DNA of 32,000 nucleotides from Verrucomicrobiota bacterium (GCA_008932965.1 WBXG01000004.1:18768-50767); one strand, 5' to 3'; counted from the first letter of the stretch, positions 5,149-31,831 are shown. Notes: generated by a model not told the origin, from the sequence alone. Made by a program: numbers and translations.

Positions 5149-5160
5149 CGTGTTTAGAAA

Positions 5161-9092: not shown

Positions 9093-9272
9093 CCCGGATA
9101 TTTCATACTGATCGTGACGAGGAGGCCGCGAAAGCTGATGGGGCAAGGCGAGCGATGAAGTCTGACGACGGCTGTATGAGTACATACTGCCCGAGGAAGA
9201 CTTCGAGATCAACGCAGCATCCATCTGACTTTCCAGCTTATGCAGGTGATCAAGATGAAATACCTGGGTTAA
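9089..9272 (+). mobile_element. MITE-like palindromic element, copy 2 (type A), second unit of the tandem dimer; its right end forms the purD 3' end
   Basis: It starts at the shared CTAA junction. The interior is nearly identical to copy 1 (2 differences by eye over the central ~130 nt). The right arm is more diverged (GATCAAGATGAAATACCTGGGTTAA) and contains the purD stop codon. Confidence 0.9.
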
Positions 9273-10536
9273 AAGAAGCTCCTCCAATGTCCCGTCGATA
9301 TTGCTTTCCTTCAAAGTTAATCAAATCGGTAGCGGCATACGCCTTTCTACGAGCCTCTTCGAGTGTTTCTCCCAGCGCAGTCACTCCTAGGACACGTCCT
9401 CCAGCAGTGTAAAGAGTACCATCTTCCTCTTTGGCTCCTGCATGAAAGAGCACCACTTCTGGGTCAGAGGCCAAAGCCGCTTCCATTCCGTTAATCACCT
9501 TTCCTTTCTCAATGGTTCCAGGATACCCACCCGAGGCTACGACAATACAAACGGCAGGGCGTGAATCCCAGAGAGGCTTGTGCGTGGCAAGCGTTCCATC
9601 GAGTGTCGCCTCTATAAGATCGAGTAGATCGCTCTTAAGACGTCGCATGAGGACTTGAGTCTCGGGATCTCCAAAGCGACAGTTAAATTCTAGCACTTTG
9701 GGGCCTTGAGGAGTGATCATCACCCCAGGGAAAAGCATCCCTTGAAAACCAAGACCATCGGTTTCAAGCCCACGTAAAAAAGGTTTTAAGAGGATACGTT
9801 GAAGTTCTTCCAGAATGCTTTGGGGACACACTCCGGAAGGGGAGATGGTTCCCATGCCTCCGGTGTTGAGTCCTTGGTCTCCCTCAAGCGCCCGCTTGTG
9901 ATCGCGTGCATCAGGAAAAAGAAGGGCCTCTTTCCCATCTATGAGTGCGTGCAGAGAACATTCTACTCCCGTGAGGAATTCCTCAATGACAATGGTTGCT
10001 CCAGCAGCTCCAAAAATTTTCTCCTCCATCGATTGCCGCACTGCTTCACATGCCTCTTTTAAATTCTGAGCAATCACGACCCCTTTTCCAAGAGCGAGTC
10101 CATCGGCTTTCACAACGATTGGATAAGAGGCACTTCGAACATACTCGTAAGCAGAAGCAGCATCGGTGAATGTTTTTGAATCGGCTGTGGGAATTCCATG
10201 GCGTTGCATGAAATCCTTAGCAAACGATTTGGAAGATTCTAAACGTGCTCCGGAGGCCGTAGGGCCAAAAACACGAAGTCCTGCTTCTTTAAAAAGATCA
10301 ACAATACCGAGTGCCAATGGATCGTCTGGACCGACAATGGTGAGATCGATTTTTTTCTCTTTCGCAAAGGCGAGTAACCCTGCGCAATCGGAAGCTGCAA
10401 TCGGAATATTCACTCCGAGGGCCGCTGTGCCCGAATTTCCAGGAGCAGTAAAGAGACGTGTGAGCCGAGGACTCTGTTTTAATTTCCAGGCGAGGGCATG
10501 TTCTCGGCCGCCGGAGCCGATGAGAAGAATATTCAT
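9250..10536 (-). CDS. purD: Phosphoribosylamine-glycine ligase
   Basis: Canonical N-terminus MNILLIGSGGREHALAWKL from ATG 10534-10536; the track start at 10554 is an upstream TTG. ATP-grasp blocks are present throughout. The last ~6 codons (NPGISS*) lie inside element copy 2. Confidence 0.93.
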   Translation of the reverse strand: MNILLIGSGGREHALAWKLKQSPRLTRLFTAPGNSGTAALGVNIPIAASDCAGLLAFAKEKKIDLTIVGPDDPLALGIVDLFKEAGLRVFGPTASGARLESSKSFAKDFMQRHGIPTADSKTFTDAASAYEYVRSASYPIVVKADGLALGKGVVIAQNLKEACEAVRQSMEEKIFGAAGATIVIEEFLTGVECSLHALIDGKEALLFPDARDHKRALEGDQGLNTGGMGTISPSGVCPQSILEELQRILLKPFLRGLETDGLGFQGMLFPGVMITPQGPKVLEFNCRFGDPETQVLMRRLKSDLLDLIEATLDGTLATHKPLWDSRPAVCIVVASGGYPGTIEKGKVINGMEAALASDPEVVLFHAGAKEEDGTLYTAGGRVLGVTALGETLEEARRKAYAATDLINFEGKQYRRDIGGASFNPGISS

Positions 10537-10593
10537 GTTGGAAAAATTAGCCAAGAGAGATAGCCTCGTCCATCTTCAACTTGTTCCATTTCT

Positions 10594-10938
10594 ATGACCC
10601 TCTGCCTGCTTAAATCTAAAATTCACCGAGCCACAGTCACTGGTGCTTCGCTTGATTACGAAGGAAGCTTAACTATTGCTGCAGACCTCGCAGAACGTGT
10701 AGGACTCCTTCCTTATGAGAAAATCCTAGTTGGCAATATGGCTAATGGAGAGCGTTTTGAAACCTATGTCATTTATGGAAAAGTAGGGTCTGGAGTTATT
10801 GAACTTAATGGAGCTACCGCCTTGCTTGGAAAAATTGGAGATCTTCTTACCATCATGTCCTTTGCATGGATAGAGGCTGCTTCTACACATCACCCTAAGA
10901 TTATCACTCTTGGACGTAGTAATATTATTCAGTCGTAA
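10594..10938 (+). CDS. panD: Aspartate 1-decarboxylase proenzyme (pyruvoyl-dependent)
   Basis: 114-aa ORF. KSKIHRATVTGASLDYEGSLTI contains the conserved K-x-H-R and the G-S self-cleavage site. The stop TAA (10936-10938) is the first 3 nt of element copy 3. Confidence 0.9.
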   Translation: MTLCLLKSKIHRATVTGASLDYEGSLTIAADLAERVGLLPYEKILVGNMANGERFETYVIYGKVGSGVIELNGATALLGKIGDLLTIMSFAWIEAASTHHPKIITLGRSNIIQS

Positions 10939-11119
10939 CCCGGATATTTCATTCTAATCGTGACGAGGAGACCGCGAAGGCTGATGGGGTAAGGCAGAAG
11001 AGCATTTTGATGCCGGGCTGTATGTGTACATACTGTCCAAATCAAAATGTGAGTCTAACGCAGCATCCACCCTTGCTTCCCGGCCTCCGCAGTAGATTAG
11101 TGTGAAATATCCGGGTTAA
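10936..11119 (+). mobile_element. MITE-like palindromic element, copy 3 (type A with a different sub-apical stem)
   Basis: TAACCCGGATATTTCATTCTAATCGTGACGAGGAGACCGCGAAGGCTGATGGGG ... ACGCAGCATCCA ... TAGTGTGAAATATCCGGGTTAA. 184 bp. Internal stem CATTTTGAT/ATCAAAATG. Confidence 0.9.
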
Positions 11120-11143
11120 CCCGCATATTTCATTCTAATCGTG
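11116..11143 (+). repeat. Solo left terminal repeat abutting copy 3; supplies the last codons and stop of tadA
   Basis: TTAACCCGCATATTTCATTCTAATCGTG shares the TTAA with copy 3, and no matching interior or right end follows. The tadA stop (TGA, complement of 11130-11132) lies in the ATGAAATAT core. Confidence 0.8.
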
Positions 11144-11651
11144 CAGTGGTTGCTGCATTTAGATCCAAGCTATTTCGTTTTTCATTGAAGAATTTTTTGA
11201 GGAGGCGAGCGCACTCCTCCTCTCGTACTCCACTTTTAATATCGCATTTATGATTGAGGGTTGGCATTTGAAGAATATTAAGAAGCCCTCCAGCTGCACC
11301 TCCACGAGAATCACCACAGCCAAAAATCACCCGCCTCACACGTGCATTTACGGAGGCTCCTGCACACATGGGGCATGGCTCTTTAGTGACATAGAGATCA
11401 CACTCATTTAATCGCCAGTCCCCAATGACCGATGCAGCTTGAGTAATTGCTAAGATTTCTGCATGTGCTGTGGCATCTTTCAACGCCTCTACTTGATTGT
11501 GAGCACGGGCAATGATGCGATCGCAATAGACTATGACAGCTCCTACGGGGACCTCCTCCTTTTCATATGCATGTAGGGCCTGGCGCAATGCTTGCTGCAT
11601 AAAATAATCGTCACTCTTAAGGTCAATCGTCTCTGTTTGATAAAAATCCAT
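11130..11651 (-). CDS. tadA: tRNA-specific adenosine deaminase
   Basis: 173-aa ORF with cytidine/deoxycytidylate deaminase zinc motifs HAEILAI and PCPMCAGA, and the TadA-like N-terminus FMQQALRQALHAYEKEEVPVGAVIV. Confidence 0.9.
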   Translation of the reverse strand: MDFYQTETIDLKSDDYFMQQALRQALHAYEKEEVPVGAVIVYCDRIIARAHNQVEALKDATAHAEILAITQAASVIGDWRLNECDLYVTKEPCPMCAGASVNARVRRVIFGCGDSRGGAAGGLLNILQMPTLNHKCDIKSGVREEECARLLKKFFNEKRNSLDLNAATTARLE

Positions 11652-11675
11652 AAATTTAGTTTTAAAAGAAAAGTC

Positions 11676-11929
11676 TTAACCCGCATATTTCATACTGGTT
11701 CCTTGCAAGGCGCTGCGAATCCTGATGCAGAAACCACCGGCGGTCGGGAGACCACGGTGGAGACTGCCCTGAAAGGGCGAGACGAGCGGGAGCGAGCGAG
11801 TCAACGAAGGTGATGGATTGCAACGACGGCTGTATGTTTCATACTGCCCGAGGAGCAATTCGAAGCTGACGCAGCATCCATCTCACTTCCCGGCTTCCGT
11901 AGTAAATGAGTATGAAATATCCAGGTTAA
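11676..11929 (+). mobile_element. MITE-like palindromic element, copy 4 (type B, long 254-bp variant with a ~70-nt GC-rich insertion)
   Basis: Ends TTAACCCGCATATTTCATACTGG ... GAGTATGAAATATCCAGGTTAA. Core CAACGACGGCTGTATGTTTCATACTGCCCGAGGAGCAATTCGAAGCTGACGCAGCATCCA. The extra segment at 11731-11805 is absent from the other type B copy (21669). Confidence 0.9.
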
Positions 11930-12008
11930 AAGAACGACTCCTATTTTTGAACACCAATAATGTAGCTATTGTTGATATGAGAGGTCACAACAGCTACGGT
12001 ATTGCGAT

Positions 12009-13406
12009 ATGAGAGCAAAACAGATCAGCCAATATACCCTTATTTTGTTAATTATCAGTGCGATTGATAATATTAGAAATCTCCCTCAGATAGCTCTTTT
12101 TGGAACGACATTAATTTTTTTCTTTGCCCTATCAGCTCTTTTTTTCTTGATCCCTGTGGCTTTAGTTTCAGCCCAACTCTCTGCTTCCTCGCAGGAACAG
12201 GGAGGAATCTATCACTGGACCTGTATGGCCTTTGGACCAAAAATTGGTCTTATTGCTGTCTGGCTTCAATGGATTAATACACTTGTCTGGTTTCCTTCCA
12301 TTCTTTCCTTTATCGCTGCTACAGCGACCTATTTTTTTAATCCTGCATTAGCGAGTAATAAAACGTATCTCGTGAGTGTGATCCTTGTTGTTTTTTGGGG
12401 AATGACCTTTATGAACTTAGCTGGGGTTCGTCGCTCTGCATCACTAGCAACTATTTTTTCAGTCCTAGGGGCCCTGATTCCTATTGGCCTCATTATTGGC
12501 TTTGCAGTGCTGTGGGTTGTTACAGGAAGGCCTCTACAGATTCATTTTAACCTTCATAATTTACTACCTACCTTTAATCATGCTGAAAGTTTTTCTTCCT
12601 TAACGGCATTAACGGCAATCATGACCTCGTTTCTTGGAGTAGAGCTGGCAACTGTTCATATCAACGATGTTACAAACCCAGAAAAATCTTTCCCCAGAGC
12701 GCTCGGCGTGTCAGTGCTCATTATTCTAGGAACAATGACACTAGGATCACTTGGCATCGCACTAGTCTTACCTCTCGATCAAATTAATTTAGTCGATGGA
12801 GTCATGCAAATCTTCACTCTTTTTTCAAAAACATATCATTTCACAGTTCTTATTCCGGTCATTATGCTCATGATTATTTGTGGAGGATTGGGAGGTATGA
12901 TTAGTTACATTATTTCACCAGTAAAAGGAATATTACAGGTTGCGGAGAGCGGCTATCTACCTCCCTTTTTTACCTTCAAAAATCGTCATGGTGTTCCCAC
13001 TCGATTACTAATCACTCAAGCCATGATTGTTAGTTTGGTCTGTTCTGCATGGGGGCTGATGCCAAGTGTCAATGGATCCTACTGGCTACTAACAGATTTG
13101 AGCACTGAACTCTACATTCTCATGTATGTTTTTATGTTTCTGGCAGCATTAAAACTAAAAATAAAAATAATGCCGGCAGCACATCTTTTCAAAATTCCTG
13201 GTGGTATCTTCGGAACCGGAGTCATCTGTTTTTTAGGACTCGTAGGTTGTATCATCACTCTTGTTGTAGGATTTATCCCCCCAAGCAACATCGATGTTGG
13301 AAGCAACATGCATTACTTCATTATTTTTGCCTCTGGAGTGATCCTAATGATTCTTCCGGTATTTGGATTCTACGCTTACAAGAAACATCAGGATTCACGG
13401 GGATAG
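12009..13406 (+). CDS. APC-superfamily amino acid antiporter, GadC (glutamate:GABA antiporter) family, paralogue 1
   Basis: 465-aa polytopic ORF. Blocks FLIPVALVSAQLS, LGVELATVHINDVTNPEKSFPRAL, KNRHGVPT and FKIPGG...GFIPPSNI parallel E. coli GadC blocks as I recall them. It is clearly paralogous to 23533-24948. Confidence 0.85.
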   Translation: MRAKQISQYTLILLIISAIDNIRNLPQIALFGTTLIFFFALSALFFLIPVALVSAQLSASSQEQGGIYHWTCMAFGPKIGLIAVWLQWINTLVWFPSILSFIAATATYFFNPALASNKTYLVSVILVVFWGMTFMNLAGVRRSASLATIFSVLGALIPIGLIIGFAVLWVVTGRPLQIHFNLHNLLPTFNHAESFSSLTALTAIMTSFLGVELATVHINDVTNPEKSFPRALGVSVLIILGTMTLGSLGIALVLPLDQINLVDGVMQIFTLFSKTYHFTVLIPVIMLMIICGGLGGMISYIISPVKGILQVAESGYLPPFFTFKNRHGVPTRLLITQAMIVSLVCSAWGLMPSVNGSYWLLTDLSTELYILMYVFMFLAALKLKIKIMPAAHLFKIPGGIFGTGVICFLGLVGCIITLVVGFIPPSNIDVGSNMHYFIIFASGVILMILPVFGFYAYKKHQDSRG

Positions 13407-13438
13407 AAAAATTCTTGAGTTTCACCAACAGAGTGGCA

Positions 13439-14845
13439 TTACTTCCCAATTTTTCGAAGTGGTTTTCCTGAAAGCAAGTTGCTTTCAATTTTTTCTAATG
13501 AGATTCCTTTGGTCTCTGGAACAAAAAGCACAAAAAAGATAATGAATAATGCTTGAATAGCACCATACATGAGAAAGGTGTTTCCGTTTCCTAATTTGGC
13601 AAGCATTGTTAAAAATGTTCCCCCAATAATAGCATTAGAAATCCAGTTTGCCGAAGTGCTGAAGGTAATTCCAAGATCACGTCCTCCCAACGGAAAAATT
13701 TCAGAACAGATAATCCAGATGATAGGACCTGCGCTCATTGCAAATCCAATAATAAAGAGCAGCAATGCGATGATAGCATAATAGCCTAGGACAGGGGCTT
13801 GCTCGAGGTTCATATTTAAGAAAGCTCCAACTGCCAACATCGATAATCCCATCACCACAAAGCCAAAATACATCATCGGTTTACGGCCTAATTTATCGAC
13901 AAAGGCAATGGCAATAAAGGTGGCTAGCATATTAGTGATGCCAACAATAACTGTTCCCCACATCTGACCAGAGGTGCTTGCAAAACCAGCCATCTTAAAA
14001 ATACGTGGAGCATAGTACATCACAACGTTGATACCACTGAGCTGTTGAATAAATTGAAGAGAAATACCGAGAAAAATAGCACGACGAAAATTTGAATTAC
14101 TCAGAAGCAAATGAAATCCATTTTGTTTTTGTTCTAAATTTCTTTTAATTTCTGCAACCTCAGTAGCAATCTCTTCCTCTTGAAGTAACATGCTGCGAAA
14201 GACGTTTTTTCCTTTCTCTTCAAATCCTTTAAGAAAAAGCCACCGTGGACTCTCAGGAAGAATCAACATTCCTAAAAACATGAGACTAGCTGGAAGAGCT
14301 ATGACACCTAACATGATTCTCCAGTGACCACCTATTTGATGATGAATCATAGCAGTAGTTCCAAAATACATATTACTAAAATAGGCCATCATGATTCCAA
14401 TGGTGATCATGAGTTGATACATTGAAATCATACTACCACGGATACGTTGTGGAGAAATTTCCGATAAATAAAGTGGTGCTGTGAAGGAGGCAACTCCCAC
14501 TGCAATTCCAAGAAAAAAGCGAGCTCCAATAAGCTCATTGGGAGAACTACTAATAGAGCAGTAGAGCGAGCCAAGGATAAAAATCAGAGCGCTCACCAGC
14601 ATGGTTTTTTTGCGTCCAAGTTGATTGGAAAGAATTCCTGAAATCAGGGTCCCAAAAACGGCCCCCCATAAAAGTGAGCTCACGATGAATTCAAGAACGT
14701 GGTCACTCACGCTGAAATCCTTTTGAATAAATTCTAGTGCGCCGGAGATGACCCCGATATCGAGTCCAAACAGAAGTCCTGCCAGTGCTGCTGTGAATCC
14801 AATGAAATAAACAATGGAATTTGGTTTAGAATGGAGTGTTTTCAT
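13439..14845 (-). CDS. MFS sugar porter family transporter (XylE/GalP/IolT-like)
   Basis: 12-TM ORF with sugar-porter signatures GRKKTMLVSALIF, PESPRWL, PETKG and VDKLGRKP. The start was moved to ATG 14843-14845 (MKTLHS...); the track start at 14857 is TTG. Confidence 0.88.
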   Translation of the reverse strand: MKTLHSKPNSIVYFIGFTAALAGLLFGLDIGVISGALEFIQKDFSVSDHVLEFIVSSLLWGAVFGTLISGILSNQLGRKKTMLVSALIFILGSLYCSISSSPNELIGARFFLGIAVGVASFTAPLYLSEISPQRIRGSMISMYQLMITIGIMMAYFSNMYFGTTAMIHHQIGGHWRIMLGVIALPASLMFLGMLILPESPRWLFLKGFEEKGKNVFRSMLLQEEEIATEVAEIKRNLEQKQNGFHLLLSNSNFRRAIFLGISLQFIQQLSGINVVMYYAPRIFKMAGFASTSGQMWGTVIVGITNMLATFIAIAFVDKLGRKPMMYFGFVVMGLSMLAVGAFLNMNLEQAPVLGYYAIIALLLFIIGFAMSAGPIIWIICSEIFPLGGRDLGITFSTSANWISNAIIGGTFLTMLAKLGNGNTFLMYGAIQALFIIFFVLFVPETKGISLEKIESNLLSGKPLRKIGK

Positions 14846-14967
14846 ATGGCAAACCAAGCAGAAGAAGAAAAATAAGCAAGCTTTTTTTGCAATTGATAAT
14901 TATTCCATGATCAACACTAGTATTAATTAATAAATCGTCCTAGAATTGAAGCTTCCATTGGAAATTT

Positions 14968-16494
14968 ATGCAACGCGCCCTTCTCTCGGTCTCTAATAAA
15001 ACAGGTCTTATTGAATTTGCACGTGGTCTCCTCGCTCATCATGTAGAGTTGATTTCAACAGGTGGTACAGCCAAGGCATTAAAAAACGCTGGTATTGCTG
15101 TCCTAGAAATTTCTGATTTTACAGGCTTACCTGAAATGATGGAGGGTCGAGTTAAAACACTGCATCCTAAGGTTCATGGGGGCTTACTCTATCGTCGCGA
15201 TCAGCCCACTCATTGTGCAGAAGCAGAAGCACACGGTATCCTCCCGATTGATCTAGTTTGTGTGAATTTATATCCCTTTGTTGAAACAATTGCCCAAAAA
15301 GGAACAACATTAGAACAAGCTATTGAACAAATCGATATTGGGGGGCCCTCCATGATCCGGAGCGCTGCTAAAAATCATGCTTCTGTAACCGTGGTAGTCG
15401 ACCCCGAAGATTACCCACGTATTTTAGAAGCGATGGCCAACAACAATGGTTCTACCACCCCAGAATTACGTGCTCGATTAGCAACGAAAGCCTTTTCAAC
15501 AACAGCTTCCTACGACCACGCTATTAGCTCTTATCTTGATGGAGAGGTAGTACCAGCCACCTCTTTTTCTTTGAAACTCCCTCAAGTATGTCGCCTCCGG
15601 TATGGTGAGAACCCCCATCAAGAAGCAGAACTCTATGGGCATTTCTTTGACTATTTTGAAAAACTCCATGGTAAAGAACTTTCCTTTAATAATATTCTCG
15701 ATATTACGGCAGCCACCCATTTGATTGCGGAGTTTGATAAACCAACTATCGCGATTCTCAAACATACGAATCCCTGTGGTGTCGCCAGTGACCCAGATCT
15801 TTGTACAGCGTGGGAAAAAGCTTTTGCGACCGATCGCTCTGCTCCTTTTGGAGGTATTATCATCGTGAACCGACCAATCGATGAAAAATTAGCTCATGCG
15901 ATTTCAGAAATTTTCAGTGAGGTTATTATCGCACCTGAATTTCATGTAGAAGCACGCTCGTTATTACAAAAGAAAAAAAACCTTCGCCTCATGCGCCTTT
16001 TACAGAAAGCACCGCCTACAGAACGTAATCTACGATCGGTGATTGGTGGTATTCTTTTACAAGATGCCGATATCGATTCTTGGAATAAGGTAGGAACGAT
16101 GGAGCAACGTGTCGTTTCGGAGCGCCCCCCCACGCGCGATGAGCTCGAAGCAATGGAGTTTGGTTGGAAGGTAGTAAAGCACGTCAAAAGCAATGCCATC
16201 GTCTATGCTGGTCGTGATCGAACGTTAGGTATTGGAGCTGGTCAAATGTCCCGTGTTGATGCTTCACGTATCGCTGTCTGGAAGGCTGCCGAAGCAGGTC
16301 TCTCTCTCAAAGGAAGCGTCGTCTGCAGTGATGCTTTTTTCCCTTTTGCTGATGGCCTTGTTGCAGCCGCTGAGGCAGGAGCAACTGCTGCTATCCAGCC
16401 GGGGGGATCGATACGTGATCCAGAAGTTATCGCTGCTGCCAATGAGCATCGCATTGCAATGGTCCTAACTGGCATGCGTCATTTTAGGCACTAG
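14968..16494 (+). CDS. purH: Bifunctional AICAR transformylase / IMP cyclohydrolase
   Basis: 508-aa ORF with the MGS-like N-terminal domain ([21 protein letters not shown]...GGTAKAL) and an AICARFT domain ending in the conserved ...TGMRHFRH. The stop TAG (16492-16494) coincides with the TA flank plus first base of a truncated element. Confidence 0.95.
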
Positions 16495-16535
16495 CCCGAA
16501 TATTTCATACCGATCACCTTAGTAGACCGGGCAGC
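16491..16535 (-). repeat. Truncated element end (best match: right arm in reverse orientation)
   Basis: CTAGCCCGAATATTTCATACCGATC-ACCTTAGT-AGACCGGGCAGC. The GATC...AGACCGGG spacing matches the reverse complement of the copy 1 right arm (GATCTACTACGGAGACCGGG). Confidence 0.6.
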
Positions 16536-16560
16536 TAGCCCGGATATTTCACGCTTAGTC
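16535..16560 (+). repeat. Second solo terminal repeat directly abutting the first
   Basis: CTAGCCCGGATATTTCACGCTTAGTC. The first 19 nt match the left end of copy 1, after which similarity is lost. Confidence 0.6.
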
Positions 16561-16615
16561 TATGACTGCTTGTGCAAAGCTACTACCGTGAAGATTTAAA
16601 AATAATATTTACCCC

Positions 16616-17455
16616 ATGATTCTTAAATACACTCTTCTTCTAACTGCTTTCTTTCTTAGTCCCTTGGCTCTCTATGCTCAGCCACTTAAAATTGTTGCAG
16701 CAGAAAATTTTTATGGTGGTGTAGCAGAGCAGATTGCTGGCTCCTCCGCAGAGGTGACTAGTATCATGAGCAATCCGAATCAAGATCCTCATGAATCTCA
16801 ATCCAATGCTAGAACTGCCAAAAAAGTTGCTGATGCCACGATCATAATTTACAACGGTCTTGGCTACGATACCTGGATGGAAAAATTGCTAGGTGCAGAT
16901 AAAAAATCAAATCGTGTCATCATTAATGTAGCTCAACTTGTAGGGGCACAAGAGGGATCTAATCCACATCTCTGGTATGATCCAAAAACAATGCCTGCTC
17001 TTGCTGCAAAACTTGCTGCTATTCTCCATAGGCCAGAGGCTGAAGTTGCCTTTTTTGAGTCGATGCAGCCTCTGATTGAAAAAATCAAAAGATTGAAATG
17101 CATAACAGCAGGGATGAAGGTAACGGCGACGGAACCTGTCTTTGGCTATATGGCCTCAGCACTCGGATTTCAAATGCTCAACGAGGGTTACCAGCAGGCG
17201 ATCATGAATGATGCAACACCTCGTTTTCAAGAAATCGTGAACTTTGAAAAAAGCCTCACAGATCATACTGCTCAGCTTCTATTTCAAAATAGTCAAACGA
17301 TCAATCCCTCGACACTGCGCCTGATTTCAATCGCTAAACAACATCATATCCCAGTCATTAACATTACAGAAACAGAACCTCCTGGTGCTAAAAGTTACGT
17401 TGATTGGATGATGTCGCAATTAGAAGAGATCGAGTCCTCTCTTCCTGCTCATTAA
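16616..17455 (+). CDS. Metal ABC transporter substrate-binding protein (ZnuA/TroA, cluster A-I family)
   Basis: 279-aa ORF with a signal peptide (MILKYTLLLTAFFLSPLALYA) and metal-site motifs NPNQDPHE and NPHLWYDP. It is followed by the cognate ATPase and permease. Metal specificity cannot be called. Confidence 0.85.
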   Translation: MILKYTLLLTAFFLSPLALYAQPLKIVAAENFYGGVAEQIAGSSAEVTSIMSNPNQDPHESQSNARTAKKVADATIIIYNGLGYDTWMEKLLGADKKSNRVIINVAQLVGAQEGSNPHLWYDPKTMPALAAKLAAILHRPEAEVAFFESMQPLIEKIKRLKCITAGMKVTATEPVFGYMASALGFQMLNEGYQQAIMNDATPRFQEIVNFEKSLTDHTAQLLFQNSQTINPSTLRLISIAKQHHIPVINITETEPPGAKSYVDWMMSQLEEIESSLPAH

Positions 17456-17520
17456 AATAGGGAACCTCTTTCCTAAAACGACATTTCGCTTTTTTCATTG
17501 TTCCTATAACCTCTTTTGCC

Positions 17521-18312
17521 ATGGCACTGCTCTCTTTTCAAAATGTTGGAATACGCTTCGGCTCCCGAGAAATTATTCATCATTTTTCTGCAGAGATTGA
17601 GGAGGGAGAATTTATCGGTATTTTTGGCCCCAATGGGGTAGGTAAATCAACGCTCATGCGTGCTATCTTAGGTCTTTGCCCGATTCAGAAGGGATCGATT
17701 GATCTCTTTGGAGAAAACCCTGGAAAAATGAATCGCTTTATTGGGTATCTGCCACAATCTCAAAGCCTCCTTGGAACGACCACACTCTCGGCACGCGCTC
17801 TGGTAGCAGCCGTCCATCATGGTGAACAATGGGGAGTCCCTTGGCTCTCTTCCAAAGATTCTTATCAAGTAGAGAGAGCTCTAGAGCTCTCCGAAGCAAG
17901 AGACTATGCAGATATCCCTTTTTCACTTCTTTCCGGAGGAGAGAAGAAAAGAGTAATGCTCGCACAAGCCCTCATCGATGAACCTAAATTACTTATTTTA
18001 GATGAGCCTCTTGCCAGTCTTGATCCTAAAAATCAGATGCTCTTAGTACAACGGATTCGTGATATTCAAGAAGAAACAGGACTCACCATTCTCTTCATTG
18101 CTCATGATGTGAATCCATTACTTGGAGCTATGACCCGTGTCATGTATATGGCAGAAGGGAATGTGGCTTTGGGAAGCACTCAAGAAATTATTACGAATGA
18201 ATCGCTCAGCGCTCTCTATGGAATGAATATCCATGTCCTTCGTGCTGAAGGGAGGGTTTTCATTGTTAATGCAGAAAGCAATATTGATGAAACAACCTGT
18301 TCTCATGTCTAA
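17521..18312 (+). CDS. Metal ABC transporter ATP-binding protein (ZnuC-like)
   Basis: Walker A GPNGVGKST, signature LSGGEKKRV, Walker B LLILDEP and an H-loop in FIAHD. Confidence 0.9.
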   Translation: MALLSFQNVGIRFGSREIIHHFSAEIEEGEFIGIFGPNGVGKSTLMRAILGLCPIQKGSIDLFGENPGKMNRFIGYLPQSQSLLGTTTLSARALVAAVHHGEQWGVPWLSSKDSYQVERALELSEARDYADIPFSLLSGGEKKRVMLAQALIDEPKLLILDEPLASLDPKNQMLLVQRIRDIQEETGLTILFIAHDVNPLLGAMTRVMYMAEGNVALGSTQEIITNESLSALYGMNIHVLRAEGRVFIVNAESNIDETTCSHV

Positions 18313-18356
18313 AATTACCGCATGCTCCCGGAAGTTTTAAAAAAATAAACAAGTCC

Positions 18357-19163
18357 ATGATGCACTACCTTTCCTACGATTTCGTTCAAAATGCTCTAAT
18401 TGCTGGATCCATTGCTGCTGCTCTTGGAGCTGTAGTTGGTTACTTTGTGATTATTCGCAATGTCGGTTTTGCTGCCCATGCCCTCGCCCACATTGGATTT
18501 ACAGGAGCTACCGGAGCCATCCTCTTTGGACTTACCCCGCTACAAGGGATGTTAGTGATGAGCTCTCTTGCAGGAGCTACTATGGGGATTTCGGGTAACA
18601 GATTTCATCGTAGTGAACTTGCTATCGGAATGGTTCTCTCCATCTCGCTTGGTTTAGGAACACTCTTCCTCTCCCTCTATCAAGGTTTTGCTGGGGAGGC
18701 AACAGCGATCCTTTTTGGAAATATCTTTGGTGTTTCTCATACTCAAGTGATGGAAACCGTTCTACTTTCAACATTGAGCTTGTTGCTCTTGGCCCTTTTC
18801 TCACGTCGCCTCCTTTTTGTAAGTATTCAACCCGATCTTGCAGAATCGCGAGGATTATCACTCACCTTTCTTTCTACTGCATTCATGATCATCCTTGCAA
18901 TCAGTGTTGCCCTAGTAAGTCAGGTCGTTGGTACTTTACTAGTCTTCACTTTATTAATTGGTCCTGCTGGTATTGCAACGCGTCTGAGTCATACTTTCTG
19001 GAGAACAATTTTACTCTCTCTATTCATTGGAATCGTCTCTGTTTGGAGCGGAATCCTTTTAGCATGCTTCACAAATCAACCTCCGAGTTTTTGGATCACT
19101 AGTATTCTTTTTTGCCTCTATATTCTTACAGAGCTCAAGGTAAAGCTTTTTGAGAGCGTTTAG
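18357..19163 (+). CDS. Metal ABC transporter permease (ZnuB-like, ABC-3 family)
   Basis: 268-aa ORF with 8-9 TM helices. It is third in the SBP-ATPase-permease order. The stop TAG (19161-19163) is the start of a truncated element. Confidence 0.88.
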   Translation: MMHYLSYDFVQNALIAGSIAAALGAVVGYFVIIRNVGFAAHALAHIGFTGATGAILFGLTPLQGMLVMSSLAGATMGISGNRFHRSELAIGMVLSISLGLGTLFLSLYQGFAGEATAILFGNIFGVSHTQVMETVLLSTLSLLLLALFSRRLLFVSIQPDLAESRGLSLTFLSTAFMIILAISVALVSQVVGTLLVFTLLIGPAGIATRLSHTFWRTILLSLFIGIVSVWSGILLACFTNQPPSFWITSILFCLYILTELKVKLFESV

Positions 19164-19210
19164 CCCGCATATTTCATACTGGTTCGACGCGAGGTGCTGT
19201 GAATCCTGAT
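19160..19210 (+). repeat. Truncated type B element (left end and left arm only)
   Basis: TTAGCCCGCATATTTCATACTGGTTCGACGCGAGGTGCTGTGAATCCTGAT matches the first ~50 nt of copies 11676 and 21669. The core and right end are missing. Confidence 0.8.
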
Positions 19211-19253
19211 CTATACTACGTCAGATTTTTTGTTTCTATTTACGTTTTTAGGT

Positions 19254-20123
19254 TTATAGCACATCTGCAAAAGCAGGCTTCATCCTAATAAAGAGGGCAT
19301 AGCCTATAATTGCTATGATGATACTCCAAAAAAGCTGAAGACCATACATGGTGATATCTGGCCACTGGTGAAAAACCAGAGCATTGCGGCCCATCGAAAT
19401 AAGTACTGCTGCTGGATTGAGCATTACAACCCAACGCCACGTAGCAGGAATTGCTGTGATGGGAAAAAAGAGTGCGCTCATAAACATTAAAACTGTGATT
19501 GCGGGAGGAATCAGTGCCCCAATATCACGTAAAAAAACACCGAGTGCTGCAAGAATCCAACTGATTCCAAGTGAATAAAACAGGATAGGAACAAAAATAA
19601 AGATGAGGCTTATGGAAGAGAGTCCTATGGTGCCTTGGGAAACGAGAAGCAACAGAAGCAACGGAATGAATCCCATCGCTGTATGTACGAGTGTCGAAGT
19701 GATCATAGCGATCGGTATAATCTCTAATGGAAAAATCACTTTTGTGACAAAATTAGCATTCCCTATTATAAGCCCTGGAGAGGCTGCTATCGATCCTGCA
19801 ATAAGATCCCAGAGCAATAACCCACAAAAGAGACCCAGTGTAAATTGTGTCTTTGTCTCCCCGGGATGCCCATAAGACCCGCCGAAAATATATCCGAAAA
19901 CGAGGGTGTAGACGAGCAACATTAAAAGCGGTGTCATGAATGACCATGCGATACCGAACAATGTTCCTTTATAACGTCGTTCGATTTCACGTTTGGTAAA
20001 TTGCCACAACAACGATTTACACGAGGCAAGATGACGATAAATATTCCACGGAAGTACTAGCTCACTCCAGGAGAGTCGATTGGAGGAGATATAAGTAGGG
20101 CTCATTGTTGGGGCATGTGCCAT
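19254..20123 (-). CDS. ABC-2 type polysaccharide/O-antigen export permease (Wzm/TagG-like)
   Basis: 289-aa ORF with 6 TM helices and the N-terminal block LLWQFTKREIERRYKGTLFGIAWSFMTPLL typical of ABC-2 exporters. It lies 1 nt after the rfbC stop. Confidence 0.85.
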   Translation of the reverse strand: MAHAPTMSPTYISSNRLSWSELVLPWNIYRHLASCKSLLWQFTKREIERRYKGTLFGIAWSFMTPLLMLLVYTLVFGYIFGGSYGHPGETKTQFTLGLFCGLLLWDLIAGSIAASPGLIIGNANFVTKVIFPLEIIPIAMITSTLVHTAMGFIPLLLLLLVSQGTIGLSSISLIFIFVPILFYSLGISWILAALGVFLRDIGALIPPAITVLMFMSALFFPITAIPATWRWVVMLNPAAVLISMGRNALVFHQWPDITMYGLQLFWSIIIAIIGYALFIRMKPAFADVL

Positions 20124-20124
20124 T

Positions 20125-20676
20125 TTATGTGACTATCTCCTTCATAGCCTCTGAAAACGACATTCCTTTTTTATCTTTTTCAGAGAGTTGTATTTCATAC
20201 CCCTGAGGCCACTGAATCCCAAGAGTAGGGTCACTCCATAAAATTGTTCTCTCATGCTCCGGAGCATAATAGTCGGTGGTTTTGTAGAGCACCTCAGCAC
20301 TCTCGCTAAGGACCATGAATCCATGAGCAAAGCCAGGTGGCACCCATAGCTGGTAATGATTTTCTTCTGAAAGTTCTAGCCCATCCCAATGTTTAAAAGT
20401 TGGAGAATCTGGCCGTAGATCGACAGCAACATCAAAAATCACTCCTCGTACAACACGTACTAATTTGCCTTGAGGTTGTTTCACTTGATAATGCAGGCCT
20501 CTCAAGACTCCTTGAGAAGAGCGACTGTGGTTATCTTGAACAAAGGAGAAGAGGAGTCCTGTTTTTTGTGAAAATTCTCTTTTGTTAAAACTTTCAAAAA
20601 AAAATCCACGCTCATCTCCCGAAACCTTGGGCTCGATTAGTAGCAAATCGGGAATCTTTGTTGAAAGAAGCCTCAT
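20125..20676 (-). CDS. rfbC: dTDP-4-dehydrorhamnose 3,5-epimerase
   Basis: 183-aa cupin with DERGFFFESFN, VQDNHSRSSQGVLRGLHYQ and the catalytic-region block LWVPPGFAHGF. Confidence 0.93.
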   Translation of the reverse strand: MRLLSTKIPDLLLIEPKVSGDERGFFFESFNKREFSQKTGLLFSFVQDNHSRSSQGVLRGLHYQVKQPQGKLVRVVRGVIFDVAVDLRPDSPTFKHWDGLELSEENHYQLWVPPGFAHGFMVLSESAEVLYKTTDYYAPEHERTILWSDPTLGIQWPQGYEIQLSEKDKKGMSFSEAMKEIVT

Positions 20677-20677
20677 C

Positions 20678-21622
20678 TTAGTCCTTTTTTTCTTGGAGCA
20701 ATCGCTTCAAATATTTTCCATAGTCATTTTTCAGTAATGGCTCGGCTAATTTTTCAAGCTGTTCCTCATTGATAAATCCACGGTGGTAGGCGATTTCCTC
20801 AGGACAGGCAACCTTAAGCCCTTGGCGATGTTCAATCGTTTCAATAAAATTACTTGCCTCCATCAAGCTCTCGTGGGTTCCGGTATCAAGCCATGCATAA
20901 CCTCGGCCCATGATTTCAACATGAAGCTGATGTTGATCCAGATAGAGTTGATTGAGATCGGTGATTTCAAGTTCTCCACGAGATGAAGGCTGAAGCTGTT
21001 CCACCATCTGAGTAACCTGAGAATCATAAAAGTAGAGTCCAGTCACTGCATAGTTACTCTTGGGATGCATTGGTTTCTCTTCAAGTGCAATCGCTCTTCC
21101 CTGAGCATCAAAAGAAACCACCCCATATCTTTTAGGATCTTTCACATGATACGCAAAAACGGTGGCCCCCTCCTTCTGGTTGTCGGCTTTCTCTAATTGG
21201 GAGTGAAAGTCATGCCCATAAAAGATATTATCTCCCAGAATCAGTGCAGAACTGTTTTCACCGATAAACTTTTTTCCAATAATAAATGCTTCTGCAAGAC
21301 CATTGGGCAAAGGTTGAATAGCATATTGAAAATGAACACCCCAATGGCTTCCATCACCAAGAAGTTTCTCGAAATGAGGGAGATCATGCGGTGTTGAAAT
21401 GATCAAAATATCGCGTATTCCAGCAAGCATGAGGGTGCTCAGTGGATAATAGATCATTGGCTTGTCATAAATAGGAAGCAGCTGCTTTGAAATAACTTTA
21501 GTAACAGGATAGAGCCGCGTTCCCGAGCCACCTGCTAAGATAATACCACGCCGTTGCTTTGACACATTCGACGAAACGATTTCATTTTCAGTGTGTAATA
21601 TATTTTTAGTTCCTTGATTCAT
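20678..21622 (-). CDS. rfbA: Glucose-1-phosphate thymidylyltransferase
   Basis: [37 protein letters not shown] and downstream RmlA blocks. It has a ~24-aa N-terminal extension relative to typical RmlA. Confidence 0.93.
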
Positions 21623-21668
21623 TGAAAATATTTTTTCTACTTCATCTTATACTTAAACGTATTCTCCA

Positions 21669-21852
21669 CTAGCTCGCATATTTCATACTGAATCGTCATG
21701 AGGCGCCGTGAATTCTGATGCAGATCAAGAAGGTGATGGATTGCGACGACGTCTGTATATTTCATACTGCCCAAGGAGTAATTCGAGGCTGGCGCAGTAT
21801 CCATCAGGTGTTCGCAAGTCGCAGCAGAATCAGCATGAAATATTCGGGCTAG
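21669..21852 (+). mobile_element. MITE-like palindromic element, copy 5 (type B, 184 bp)
   Basis: CTAGCTCGCATATTTCATACTGAATCGTCATGAGGCGCCGTGAATTCTGATGCAGA ... GCGACGACGTCTGTATATTTCATACTGCCCAAGGAG ... CAGCATGAAATATTCGGGCTAG. It lies 47 nt upstream of the rfbA start. Confidence 0.9.
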
Positions 21853-21920
21853 TTATTTTAAAGGTGGTAAGCTTTGAACGGCCATTCATGAGACCTGGGG
21901 CTTGAAATATCATTAACAAC

Positions 21921-22271
21921 CTACGAACTCTGTTCGCTTCCTTCCTCTTCTAGAGAGGGAAATTTCAACTTTACCTTATCACCATAGATGACTGCACGCG
22001 CCTGCAAGACCACATCAGGAATTAAGTTATGAGATTTATCCTCAATCATACGAATGAGATGCATGAGTGAAGCTACAATGAGGGCATTACGCGACCAACC
22101 AATGGAATTGGCAATATGATCCGTTTTTTTAAGAATAGCTTGATGACAAGCAAAGCCTGTTCGTGTTTGTGCAGGAGAGGTTTTTGGGGCGCCCATAGGA
22201 ATTAATGAAAGAAAATTGGATTTTGCGATAGTATCCTTTTTTATCGCTTCATGCAAGAAGTGATCTATCAA
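21921..22271 (-). CDS. Small hypothetical protein with a probable ribbon-helix-helix (CopG/Arc/MetJ-like) DNA-binding fold
   Basis: TRTGFACHQAILKKTDHIANSIGWSRNALIVASLMHLIRMI fits the strand-helix-helix pattern of RHH proteins (...SRNALI..A...). The start is uncertain: TTG at 22271 abuts an element, and ATG at 22196 would give 91 aa. The gene is flanked by elements on both sides. Confidence 0.45.
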   Translation of the reverse strand: MIDHFLHEAIKKDTIAKSNFLSLIPMGAPKTSPAQTRTGFACHQAILKKTDHIANSIGWSRNALIVASLMHLIRMIEDKSHNLIPDVVLQARAVIYGDKVKLKFPSLEEEGSEQSS

Positions 22272-22273
22272 AC

Positions 22274-22459
22274 CTAGCCCGCATATTTCATACTGATCGT
22301 GACGAGGAGGCCGCGAAGGCTGATGGGGTAAGGCACGTGATCAAGTCTGACGACGGCTCTATGAGGTCCTACTGCCCGAGGAAGACTTCGAGCTTGGGCG
22401 CCGCATCCACTCTTGCTTCCCGACCTCTGCAGGTAGTTGATATGAAATATGTGGGCTAG
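22274..22459 (+). mobile_element. MITE-like palindromic element, copy 6 (type A, 186 bp)
   Basis: CTAGCCCGCATATTTCATACTGATCGTGACGAGGAGGCCGCGAAGGCTGATGGGG ... TCTGACGACGGCTCTATGAGGTCCTACTGCCCGAGGAAGACTTCGAG ... GTTGATATGAAATATGTGGGCTAG. Confidence 0.9.
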
Positions 22460-22542
22460 ATAACCCAGGGTTGTATTATCAGGAAAACAATTGCAGAAGA
22501 TGCGGTATTTTTTGTTAACATGCGTTAATTATGTTGACATTT

Positions 22543-22737
22543 CTAAAAATGAATACAAGGTGACGAAAGTAGTTTTTCTATTTCATCGTTATGAAAGCGT
22601 TCTACCAAGCCATCACCCACGACATTGTAATGTCGTCTAGGAATGCTATTTTCAACATTCCTCTTGTTGGAGCCAAAAAACTCATGATGTTCGACCTTGC
22701 TAACGCCACCGATGGATTTTTTTTTATTTCTCAGCAT
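22543..22737 (-). pseudogene. Possible degenerate remnant of the C-terminal part of a DDE (rve-type) transposase
   Basis: In this 64-aa ORF, NSIPRRHYNVVGDGLVERFHNDEIEKLL resembles the G-I-x-H-R...NG-x-VERF-x-x-x-L-K-x-E block that closes the integrase core of IS481/IS3-type transposases (from memory). The same frame upstream is broken by a stop (...FEWDGIVAIGS*). No intact catalytic domain is present. Confidence 0.2.
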
Positions 22738-22914
22738 CCTGTGATCTCAGGATCCTATCGCCACGATTCCATCCCATTCAAATCGGTTTTTAGGCATTGA
22801 GGAAGCGCAGCGTCTGATACTATAAATTTTGTAACTTAACATCACTTTTTTAATCATTAACTAACTATGTGAATCCTTAACAATCAATAACGCACCCTCA
22901 ACAACCAAAAACTT

Positions 22915-23169
22915 ATGATGAATGAGAACTATGCCATATTCGCAAAATTGGAGCGATTAATAGATGAGTGGTGTGAACGACGATGTTTAAAACCCCTTTT
23001 TTATATTTTAAGAGATTATCCACTTTGCGGCGAATTAGTTTATGGTTGGAACGTGTTATTAGAATCGTTGCTAGAAATAAAAGATTTTTGCAATCACGAG
23101 CTTACTCTTCAAGAACGAGAATTATTGTTAGAAATTATCGATTGCGCTAAACGAAAGGTTCAGGAGTAA
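22915..23169 (+). CDS. Orphan 84-aa hypothetical protein (predicted all-helical, five Cys)
   Basis: ATG-initiated ORF in the AT-rich islet with no recognisable motif and no obvious Shine-Dalgarno sequence. It is kept because it is the only uninterrupted frame there and no other ORF overlaps it. Confidence 0.35.
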   Translation: MMNENYAIFAKLERLIDEWCERRCLKPLFYILRDYPLCGELVYGWNVLLESLLEIKDFCNHELTLQERELLLEIIDCAKRKVQE

Positions 23170-23400
23170 GTAATCCTAAAAACATGAATAAAAATGAGGA
23201 AGTTTGCGTAAGGAATTGGATTTAAGAATGGTTGAAAAACAACGATATTGGGTAACATTTTTTATTTTCATTCACGTTTTTAGGATAATACCCTTCTCCT
23301 AGGAAGTCAGTCCCGGGTGCAGAAAATAAAAGGTTTTTCTTGCCGAAGAGCTCGATCCTATCTTCTATCTTCTCTCACTAATTTTTTGTCGCTAATGTTG

Positions 23401-23507
23401 AGCCCGGATATTTCATACTAAGTCTCTTACTGCATTGTACAATGCATGATGACTGCTGTTTTGGACTAGAATTATGTTATGACACTTCAGTATGAAATAT
23501 CCGGACT
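23401..23507. mobile_element. Short (107-bp) element with the family terminal repeats but an unrelated interior
   Basis: AGCCCGGATATTTCATACTAAGT ... CTTCAGTATGAAATATCCGGACT. The interior lacks the GACGACGGCTGTATG core and contains a perfect 16-bp palindrome TGCATTGTACAATGCA (23431-23446). It ends 25 nt before the permease ATG. Confidence 0.8.
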
Positions 23508-23532
23508 ATAACAACGTTAAGTGCTATTTCCT

Positions 23533-24948
23533 ATGAATAAAAAAACGTTAAGTCTCTTTGCCTTAGTAATGATGAATGTCGCTGCTATCGACAGTCTGAG
23601 AATATTACCTGTGAGTGCCGAATACGGTCTCTCGTTGATTTTTTACTATGTCATGGCAGCATTACTCTTTTTTGTTCCTACTGCACTTGTCTCAGCTGAA
23701 TTGTCAACCGGGTGGCCTGAATCAGGGGCAATGTACGTTTGGGTGAGAGAAGCATTTGGCCCCAAATTTGGATTTATGATTATTTGGGTGCAATGGATTA
23801 GCAATATTGCTTGGTTTCCAACAATAATGTCCTTCATTGCTGCTACCCTCTTTTATTGTATCGATCCCAACCTGGTGAATAATAAATCTTCCATGATCAC
23901 AGTGATCTTTTTCTTATTTTGGGGTATTACATTCCTCAATTTTTTTGGGATCAAAACGGCCAGTTTTTTTGGAAGCCTCTCAGCGATTCTTGGAACGCTA
24001 GCACCCATGGGATTTATTATTATTCTCGGAGCTATTTGGATGATCATGGGAAAACCACTAAGCATTTCCTTGAGTTGGCATGCTCTTCTTCCTGATGTCA
24101 AAAACATCGATAATATGGCTCTCTTGACCGTGCTTTTATATAGCCTTGTCGGTATTGAACTCTCTGCTGCTCATGCAGGAGAGGTCAAAAACCCTCAAGC
24201 CAACTACCCAAAAGCTATTTTTTGGTCTGTTTTAATCATTCTTGGCAGCCTTATTTTTTCCTCCCTTGCCATTGCCTTAGTTGTACCACAATCCGAGCTT
24301 AATATTATTGCTGGTTTGCTCCAAGCCTTCGAAATCTTTTTTAATGCATTTCATCTTCATGGGCTCATGCCTCTCTTAGCTTTTTTAATCACATTAGGAG
24401 CCCTAGGAGGATTGAATTCATGGATTTTGGGGCCAAGTAAAAGTTTACTCATAGCATGCCACGATGGATGCCTTCCTCCTCAACTGGGAAAAAAAAACAG
24501 TCACGGGGTTCCTATCTTTATTTTACTGCTTCAAGGACTCATTTTTTCTGTACTCACCGCCCTCTTTTTACTGATGCCTACGGTTAGTAGTGGGTTCTTG
24601 CTTTTAACCAATATCGCCTCTCTCCTAGCACTCTTAGGATACATTGCTATGTTTGCTGCTGCTGTGAGATTGAGGTATAAATATCCTGATGTGAAACGAG
24701 CTTTTGTCACACCCGGTGGAAAGGTGGGGCTTTGGTTTGTTTGTACTATTGGCGTTCTGAGCTCCTTATTTACCATCTCTCTTGGCTTCTTGCCTCCAAG
24801 TCAAATCGCCGTTGGTAATGTTTTAAGATACCAGCTTACCATTGGTTTTGGAATTGTGTTCGGCTGTCTCTTCCCTCTAGCGCTCTATAGCCTCCATGAA
24901 CATTGGAAAAAAAAGAGCGCGGTCGCTTCCTCTTCAAGATCAGTATGA
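23533..24948 (+). CDS. APC-superfamily amino acid antiporter, GadC family, paralogue 2
   Basis: FVPTALVSAELST, VGIELSAAHAGEVKNPQANYPKAI, KKNSHGVPI and YPDVKRAFVTPGGKVG...LGFLPPSQI parallel GadC blocks. The start was moved to ATG 23533 (MNKKTL...); the track start at 23521 is GTG. The last ~10 codons derive from an element arm. Confidence 0.88.
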   Translation: MNKKTLSLFALVMMNVAAIDSLRILPVSAEYGLSLIFYYVMAALLFFVPTALVSAELSTGWPESGAMYVWVREAFGPKFGFMIIWVQWISNIAWFPTIMSFIAATLFYCIDPNLVNNKSSMITVIFFLFWGITFLNFFGIKTASFFGSLSAILGTLAPMGFIIILGAIWMIMGKPLSISLSWHALLPDVKNIDNMALLTVLLYSLVGIELSAAHAGEVKNPQANYPKAIFWSVLIILGSLIFSSLAIALVVPQSELNIIAGLLQAFEIFFNAFHLHGLMPLLAFLITLGALGGLNSWILGPSKSLLIACHDGCLPPQLGKKNSHGVPIFILLLQGLIFSVLTALFLLMPTVSSGFLLLTNIASLLALLGYIAMFAAAVRLRYKYPDVKRAFVTPGGKVGLWFVCTIGVLSSLFTISLGFLPPSQIAVGNVLRYQLTIGFGIVFGCLFPLALYSLHEHWKKKSAVASSSRSV

Positions 24949-24962
24949 AATATTTTGTTTAA
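24915..24962 (-). repeat. Element fragment (left arm plus terminal repeat, reverse orientation) containing both convergent stop codons
   Basis: GCTTCCTCTTCAAGATCAGTATGAAATATTTTGTTTAA compares with the reverse complement of the copy 1 left end, GCCTCCTCGTCACGATCAGTATGAAATATCCGGGCTAG. The variant tip GAAATATTTTGTTTAA recurs at 31769-31784. Confidence 0.7.
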
Positions 24963-26808: not shown

Positions 26809-26820
26809 ATTCAAAAGAGG

Positions 26821-31784: not shown

Positions 31785-31831
31785 ATTGTACTTCCATTGG
31801 GAACTATATTTCTTATCATTCATTCTCCCTC

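Follow-up and report, generated by a model that had tools for sequence, protein, structure and literature searches.

A family of IS1380-related miniature transposable elements with YTAR targets at gene ends in Verrucomicrobiota

In a stretch of 32,000 nucleotides from a Verrucomicrobiota bacterium (GCA_008932965.1 WBXG01000004.1:18768-50767, hereafter the window, with positions counted from its first letter), copies of a short repeat sit on the ends of seven genes: purD, panD, tadA, purH, a metal ABC-3 permease gene, a GadC-like amino-acid permease gene and a patatin-like phospholipase gene. I report that this repeat is a MITE (miniature inverted-repeat transposable element) family, and propose that its derivation from the IS1380 family of insertion sequences (ISs), insertion at YTAR (Y, pyrimidine; R, purine) with duplication of these four bases, and purifying selection together explain most of the gene-end cases, an explanation that I regard as quite probable. 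The observations that bear on it concern the anatomy of the elements, the statistics of their 4-bp duplications, a full-length IS1380-family partner, comparisons with orthologues, and counts of occupied and unoccupied target sites.

The family forms 11 clusters in the window, occupying about 2 kb of the 32 kb. A 17-nt end motif, CCCGSATATTTCATACT, occurs 19 times with at most three mismatches, against 0.17 occurrences expected. The core is typically 176 nt long, with ends CCCGSATATTTCATACTGATC that form terminal inverted repeats, and the window holds five complete copies, with cores of 176–178 nt and inverted ends. When a complete copy is folded as RNA, it forms a single long hairpin (−81 kcal/mol, z = −6.7). 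An exact-pattern scan for the end motif, with one genome per species, located it in many Verrucomicrobiota assemblies, mainly metagenome-assembled genomes (MAGs) of the Chthoniobacterales, and provided 94 loci (615 kb), the window not being one of them. The related loci contain 97 complete copies, again mostly of 176 nt. The repeat is a MITE family, being short, non-coding, multicopy and bounded by terminal inverted repeats, with target-site duplications at its copies and an autonomous element that has the same ends and a transposase (locus L015, below).

The target was characterized from 298 ends, in 97 loci and the window. TA flanks 85% of these, and the base between TA and CCCGG, which had been supposed to be the first base of the element, is a purine in 97% (A 56%, G 41%); all left ends in the window likewise follow an A or a G. 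Ahead of TA stands a pyrimidine in 96% (T 59%, C 37%), against a 50% pyrimidine background before TA, so that both sides of the copies read YTAR. In 58 of the 97 complete copies the same tetranucleotide stands on the left and on the right, as palindromic pairs (TTAA/TTAA in 35, CTAG/CTAG in 12) or as non-palindromic ones in 11 (CTAA/CTAA in six, TTAG/TTAG in two, and GTAA/GTAA, ATAA/ATAA and CTGA/CTGA). Across copies, the outer-left base covaries with the inner-right base (Fisher p = 2e-8), and the inner-left base with the outer-right base (Fisher p = 5e-9), a covariation that is expected of a direct 4-bp duplication of YTAR and not of a TA duplication with a fixed terminal base. This gives strong but statistical grounds for placing the start of the element at CCCGG, preceded by a duplicated 4-bp YTAR target. 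The original prediction had read each border stop codon as the flanking TA completed by the first base of an element; the purine is better read as part of the duplicated YTAR. Its generalization that ends begin with A or G, making TA plus purine always a stop, holds for the purine, which would be a property of the target site and not of the element. In L061 (7012-7192) the target departs from the consensus and nonetheless holds a stop: a complete copy there has CTGA on both sides (CTGA/CTGA), and an 836-codon open reading frame (ORF) terminates at the TGA.

Transposition of the short elements presumably depends on an IS1380-family insertion sequence acting in trans. A locus from a Pedosphaerales MAG (L015) contains, at 4916-6716, a 1801-bp element whose 18-nt ends are those of the short copies; it is flanked by a CTAG/CTAG duplication and holds an ORF of 392 residues. 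Its product matches NF033539, the NCBIfam equivalog model for IS1380-family transposases, with 244.4 bits (cut-off 180), and PF13701 (DDE_Tnp_1_4) with 326 bits, so that membership in the family is assigned by a DDE transposase model above its curated cut-off. A second, truncated copy in L026, flanked by TTAG, has the same spacing between the end and the start of the transposase, and the only transposases found beside these ends in the fetched loci belong to the IS1380 family. Because the L015 and L026 elements share the ends of the short ones and encode such a transposase, I take the short elements to be IS1380-derived MITEs. The ISfinder description of the IS1380 family gives duplications of 4–5 bp and ends beginning with CC, with which a core beginning CCCGG and a duplication of 4 bp agree. 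For one member, IS1247, a 5-bp duplication has been tabulated (PMC3281130), and IS1380 transposases usually serve as prokaryotic outgroup for piggyBac, a transposon specific for TTAA that duplicates 4 bp (PMC10813416).

Three of the seven genes, all on the plus strand, end within the target itself. panD (10594..10938) stops at TAA 10936-10938 inside GTAA (10935-10938), followed by CCCGGATATTTCAT; purH (14968..16494) stops at TAG 16492-16494 inside CTAG (16491-16494); and the metal ABC-3 permease gene (18357..19163) stops at TAG 19161-19163 inside TTAG (19160-19163). In all three the CCCGG of an element directly follows the stop, these being the complete copy E3 (10939..11115), the degenerate E6 (about 40 nt, from 16495) and the solitary left-end fragment E8 (19164..19227), each on the plus strand. 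The three border stops thus lie where they had been predicted. Since the YTAR target is duplicated as 4 bp, the TAA or TAG is probably the gene's own stop, kept in the left copy of the duplication. PurH covers the NCBIfam PurH models through to their final position (510/510), with its native C-terminus ...GMRHFRH intact; PanD ends at the same alignment position as its orthologue in L096, which is syntenic, element-free at this point and terminated by a native TAA; and the permease reaches position 254 of the 258 in the ABC-3 profile. As predicted proteins, PanD, PurH and the permease are untouched by the insertion, which agrees with the earlier proposal that insertion at a TAA or TAG stop is nearly neutral.

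The remaining four genes terminate inside an element. purD (9250..10554, minus strand) enters the complete copy E2 (9093..9268, plus strand) across TTAA (9269-9272) and stops six codons on, at the TGA complementary to 9250-9252; its product ends in IGGASFNPGISS, and the last six or so codons, giving the tail NPGISS, are element-coded. Forty PurD orthologues end in ...RRDIG(A) followed by 0–8 variable residues, and the window protein continues as ...GGASFNPGISS, such that similarity ends at ...RRDIGGAS, the element border. In L096 the spacer between purD and moxR is 88 nt long and element-free, and the sequence downstream is the same as that of the window beyond E1, the copy adjoining E2; removal of E1 and E2 reconstructs a native PurD end, ...AS(F/S)(N/S)RK and stop. 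In another relative, L095, PurD is 92% identical and has the same tail, which argues for one old event; the purD site there (1686-2121) is observed to hold a nest of three elements.

The patatin-like phospholipase gene (24940..26814, minus strand) reads into an element end in the same relative frame as purD. Its product ends ...KQNISY, with the TGA complementary to 24940-24942 and the last five codons element-coded, in the reversed solitary left-end fragment E13 (24917..24958, minus strand), which has a mutated tip and is followed by TTAA (24959-24962). A 90%-identical relative also ends in ...KQNISY. With homologues at about 40% identity the alignment reaches no further than residues 603–607 of 624 before the sequences diverge, and the tail therefore lies in a non-conserved region. 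From the opposite side, the gene for the GadC-like amino-acid permease paralogue 2 (23521..24948, plus strand) reads into the same fragment, ending ...SAVASSSRSV at TGA 24946-24948, within ATGAAATAT; the two genes overlap by 9 nt inside E13, one on each strand. Its alignments with the other paralogue in the window and with orthologues end at ...HWKKK, and SAVASSSRSV comes from about 42 nt of the left-end fragment. Relatives of the GadC-like gene in L098–L100 have kept no patatin neighbour.

tadA (11130..11651, minus strand) ends ...ARLE at the TGA of ATGAAATAT (complement of 11130-11132) in E4, a solitary end fragment of about 24 nt (11120..11143, plus strand). Similarity of TadA to the family model and to the TadA of L096 ends at ...FFNEKR (residue ~161), leaving a non-conserved tail of 12–14 residues, the last 4 codons of which overlap E4. 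In L096 an 18-nt solitary end fragment (GCCCGGATATTTCACTCT, within 4424-4460) is seen 17 nt after the tadA stop, the purD and panD ends of that locus being element-free, a hint that the common ancestor already had an insertion at the 3′ end of tadA, which has since decayed.

Judged by these alignments, the predicted PurD, patatin-like and GadC-like proteins carry short element-coded tails past the end of orthologue similarity, and TadA does so less clearly. This is what the original prediction had expected of an orthologue comparison, namely that insertions elsewhere than in a stop replace native C-termini with short tails; the inward reading of purD and patatin, and the termination of tadA and the GadC-like gene at the TGA inside the repeat, were also found as it described them. 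The fragments at tadA and at the GadC-like gene are most simply taken as remnants of deletions by which the tail of a gene became joined to the inner side of an element end. Several of the seven cases do not count as independent: a relative with about 90% protein identity has the purD, panD and patatin configurations as well.

These cases can be accommodated in a single scheme. The transposition system would insert at YTAR, favouring TTAA over CTAG and CTAG over CTAA and TTAG, and duplicate all four bases. Every such target holds TAA or TAG on both strands, and within a gene an in-frame TAR can only be its stop; a large share of the harmless targets in a gene-dense genome would hence be stop codons. 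The outcome would then be set by the reading frame in which a gene enters the element. If the insertion falls on the stop, the native stop would survive in the left copy of the duplication and the protein would be unchanged, as for panD, purH and the permease gene. Shifted by one frame, a gene would run six codons into the element before reaching the TGA of its end, adding a tail like NPxISY, as in purD and patatin. In the third frame the element is open throughout and would become an in-frame insert of 60 residues, as encountered in relatives. At tadA and the GadC-like gene, deletions would have joined a dispensable tail of the gene to the interior of an element end, and translation would stop there at the same TGA.

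I then asked how often stop codons are occupied in 73 loci with at least two ends, genes being defined as non-overlapping ORFs of at least 100 codons. As the loci were chosen for containing elements, absolute occupancies are inflated, while their ratios are not. A null model of random TA sites was replaced by one of YTAR sites once the pyrimidine at −1 had been seen. Stop codons of the form Y-TAR carry an element in 29 of 136 cases, compared with 40 of 330 YTAR sites located 1–100 nt downstream of stops. The difference is present for each target (TTAA, 24% vs 8%; CTAG, 35% vs 18%; CTAA/TTAG, 12% vs 5%), and stratification by tetranucleotide gives 27 observed against 15.7 expected, with a Mantel-Haenszel odds ratio of 2.96 (p = 4e-4). 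The enrichment of element ends at stop codons that had been predicted for a genome-wide tabulation is accordingly present in these loci. The 29 on-stop genes are unrelated and have no common flank similarity, and the insertions are therefore counted as independent. Stop codons make up about 29% of the YTAR sites between the stop and 100 nt downstream. The excess is real but modest, and the impression that elements sit on stops comes mostly from the target sequence itself.

On-stop copies are found in 14 of 54 convergent spacers and in 6 of 213 tandem spacers, a concentration that fits selection against separating co-oriented genes; at YTAR sites other than stops, occupancy showed no significant difference among divergent, tandem and convergent spacers. 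Of the 61 ends, out of 299 distinct ones, that adjoin an ORF of at least 100 codons, 34 lie on the stop, 16 add a short tail (mostly of six codons) and 11 are read through. I infer that purifying selection, rather than active targeting, lies behind the approximately 3-fold excess at stops.

A number of points weigh against this explanation. Gene calls were based on ORFs only, so the downstream control sites may hide small genes or terminators, which would inflate the stop excess, and the residual excess of about 3-fold comes without a mechanistic explanation. The autonomous copies are from other orders of Verrucomicrobiota, with none in the loci sampled from the lineage to which the window belongs. 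In the TadA tail, element sequence is clear only in the last 4–8 codons. Where a complete copy has YTAR at either end, the two tetranucleotides differ in about one quarter of cases; for ten of these copies, a 2-bp duplication with complementary terminal bases is as good a fit as a 4-bp duplication altered by mutation. Finally, no clean pair of filled and empty alleles was recovered among the fetched loci from which to read the duplication directly: L096 provides syntenic purD and panD ends with no element, and at the purD end of L095 the nest is so heavily rearranged that the length of the duplication is not readable.

The stop excess could instead be an adaptation, in that an IS1380/piggyBac-type lineage evolved its YTAR target and the design of its ends to use stop codons and dispensable gene tails as a safe harbour in gene-dense genomes. 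I consider this unlikely, if conceivable, and give equally little credence to the corresponding view of the ends themselves as an adaptive design, which yields the native stop in one frame, a TGA after six codons in another and an open run of 60 codons in the third, in both orientations. Were the excess adaptive, copies might be retained as RNA hairpins at 3′ ends.

A shade less plausible still is that the transposition machinery actively prefers stop codons or gene 3′ ends, or that copies at stops have been exapted as terminators, mRNA stabilizers or processing sites. The roughly 3-fold occupancy per site at stops, relative to the same tetranucleotides up to 100 nt downstream, speaks for this, as do the strong RNA fold and the conservation of the purD, panD and patatin insertions across about 90% protein identity. 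However, the excess is small and falls mainly between convergent genes, as passive selection predicts, it was measured against imperfect control sites, and many copies lie elsewhere or are decaying fragments.

Another candidate is a TA-duplicating MITE of the IS630/Tc1-mariner type, whose inverted repeat starts with a purine, with stops rebuilt from the flank and the first base. The frequencies of flanking TA and of the purine are compatible with this, as are the ten copies mentioned above, in which the inner bases are complementary but the tetranucleotides differ; the non-identical pairs differ at one position, and are equally compatible with decay of a 4-bp duplication. The invariant termini and 2-bp TA duplication of that type are not seen here: a pyrimidine is required before TA, the supposed first base varies between A and G and covaries with the opposite outer flank (p about 1e-8), and eleven perfect direct repeats of 4 bp are non-palindromic, one of them (CTGA/CTGA) without TA. 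Together with the exclusive presence of IS1380-family transposases beside the ends in the fetched loci, this makes a TA duplication very improbable. Mere coincidence, with elements scattered in short spacers and a few touching gene ends, would suffice for the window alone, where three on-stop cases among 11 clusters are not significantly above the ∼1.3 that I estimate (8 YTAR stops vs 51 free intergenic YTAR sites), but has practically no chance given the 29 independent genes pooled, an enrichment of more than 10-fold over all TA sites, the p value against matched YTAR sites and the 34:16:11 distribution of frames.

Returning to IS1380-derived elements duplicating YTAR, the copies in the window are varied in form. 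E1 (8913..9088, plus strand) is a complete 176-nt core flanked by CTAG (8909-8912) and CTAA (9089-9092), and is the first unit of a tandem dimer with E2, which in turn lies between that CTAA and TTAA (9269-9272). E3 is followed by TTAA (11116-11119), which it has in common with the fragment E4. E1-E2 and E3-E4 are head-to-tail dimers with one common tetranucleotide each, and a junction beside an existing copy appears to be a favoured target. E5 (11680..11925, plus strand), upstream of tadA, is a long variant of 246 nt flanked by TTAA/TTAA. Two further complete copies, E10 (21673..21848) and E11 (22278..22455), both on the plus strand, are each flanked by CTAG/CTAG. E11 abuts the start of an ORF on the minus strand (21921..22271), which has 116 codons and no Pfam match and begins directly against the CTAG; this may be its true start or may mark an N-terminal truncation by the element.

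A second subfamily (16539-16581, 23403-23505 and 31417-31596) has the same terminal 18 nt and an unrelated, shorter interior (103–180 nt), and all three members are on the plus strand. The first, E7, is a left-end fragment that follows E6 after a CTAG (16535-16538) within the cluster 16495..16581; E12 (23403..23505) is 103 nt long, with degenerate flanks TGAG and CTAT; and E14 (31417..31596) also has degenerate flanks. A left-end fragment at 31699..31787 (minus strand) has an aberrant tip (AAACAAAATATTT) in common with E13. In these two fragments (24917-24962 and 31699-31787) the tip is TTAAACAAAATATTT where TTAACCCGSATATTT is expected, and they are 82% identical over 44 nt; they represent either a subfamily with a mutated end or a local duplication.

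One locus (L012, from Tobar2m-G38) is 90% identical to the window over 788 nt, and is the only fetched locus with an orthologous stretch. The left border of E10 (21669-21672) coincides with an exact breakpoint of similarity to L012 7161-7182, where a 339-codon gene runs through an unoccupied CTAG; the window keeps just the last six codons and the stop of this gene, and the far flank is rearranged between the two. This suggests a deletion or rearrangement associated with the element. The window closes (31877-32000) in an array of at least 12 copies of a 9-nt unit (AGCATCCCA) that continues past the last position; it apparently lies within an ORF that starts at an ATG near 31832, where it follows a signal-peptide-like start and would encode an (SQA)n tripeptide repeat.

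Pfam and NCBIfam matches support the gene names used here (purD, panD, tadA, two amino-acid permeases, purH, the ABC-3 metal permease and the patatin-like gene), and for PurD, the permease and the patatin-like protein the nearest matches are either annotated as Chthoniobacterales or derive from them. In a related Chthoniobacterales contig (L097, 1-2245), genes for IpgD-like and CesT-like proteins, which belong to type III secretion effector and chaperone families, are located near purD, which suggests a host-associated lifestyle for the lineage.

Four related loci contain complete elements in frame inside long genes, at L042 3796-3971 (pheT), L037 ~3955-4130 (glnD), and in L004 and L076. The core of 176 nt and the 4-bp duplication add up to 180 nt, or 60 codons, and one frame is open in both orientations. 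The in-frame copies appear as 60-residue inserts ([A/T]RIFHTD...YEISGL), which in PheT separates the tRNA_bind and B3_4 domains and in GlnD lies between the HD and ACT domains.

As to known systems, the family is a new MITE family of the IS1380 lineage by virtue of its autonomous partner, which passes the IS1380 equivalog model, and is not of the IS630/Tc1 type. It resembles IS1380 elements in its ends starting with CC and its short 4-bp duplication, and TTAA is the commonest target here as it is for piggyBac; the window copies differ in being non-coding derivatives of 100–250 nt and not ISs. The literature searched yielded no IS1380 target consensus and no YTAR or TTAA preference for members of the family, no IS1380-derived MITE and no MITE from Verrucomicrobia, and a 2024 review of prokaryotic MITEs does not mention IS1380. 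The elements appear to be an undescribed source of IS1380-derived MITEs, whose preference for TTAA and CTAG echoes piggyBac and which could be used to study target choice in the superfamily. A YTAR target with a 4-bp duplication is also characteristic of IS5-group and IS701-family elements, which have the same target consensus and duplication length as the family here; its transposase is of the IS1380 family and its end sequences are unrelated to theirs. The Correia elements of Neisseria and the RUP elements of pneumococcus are similarly abundant short inverted-repeat elements in compact genomes, often co-transcribed with adjacent genes, but they duplicate TA, the model disfavoured here, and are tied to other IS families. 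Some size classes of Correia and ERIC elements have open frames fused to genes (PMC2229807).

The nearest parallel for gene ends is found in Coxiella burnetii, where QMITE1 and QMITE2 are described as overlapping the 3′ ends of functional genes by 1–50 bp, and as supplying C-terminal residues or stop codons, as in an extension of EnhC (PMC5896051). Like the family here these are MITEs at gene 3′ ends, unrelated to it in sequence and in host; QMITE2 is reported with a different direct repeat for each copy, unlike the YTAR duplications, and the passages retrieved from that paper mention no target containing a stop triplet and no excess at stop codons.

For the in-frame copies, the comparison is with the Rickettsia palindromic elements, repeats of about 150 nt with long hairpins, tolerated in frame in unrelated housekeeping genes (PMC10969869). 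The original prediction had called the gene-end elements similar to these without being identical, and the likeness is closer than it claimed, the family having a length that is a multiple of three, an open frame, and 60-codon copies in frame within pheT and glnD of related genomes. The Rickettsia elements are not known to have a system of inverted repeats, duplication and transposase. The family here differs from them in having inverted repeats, a 4-bp duplication and an IS partner, and its copies are mostly intergenic or at gene ends; with hosts in unrelated phyla, this is an analogy only.

The family reveals no new kind of genetic system. It illustrates a simple rule, that a transposon with a stop triplet in its 4-bp target will pile up on stops in compact genomes. 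For annotation, the stops and C-terminal tails of many genes in these Verrucomicrobia are entangled with repeat ends, and some essential genes (pheT, glnD) carry 60-residue inserts coded by the repeat. Compared with the Coxiella and Rickettsia elements, the family joins the gene-end behaviour of the former to the in-frame behaviour of the latter, and adds to both a target that contains a stop triplet by definition.

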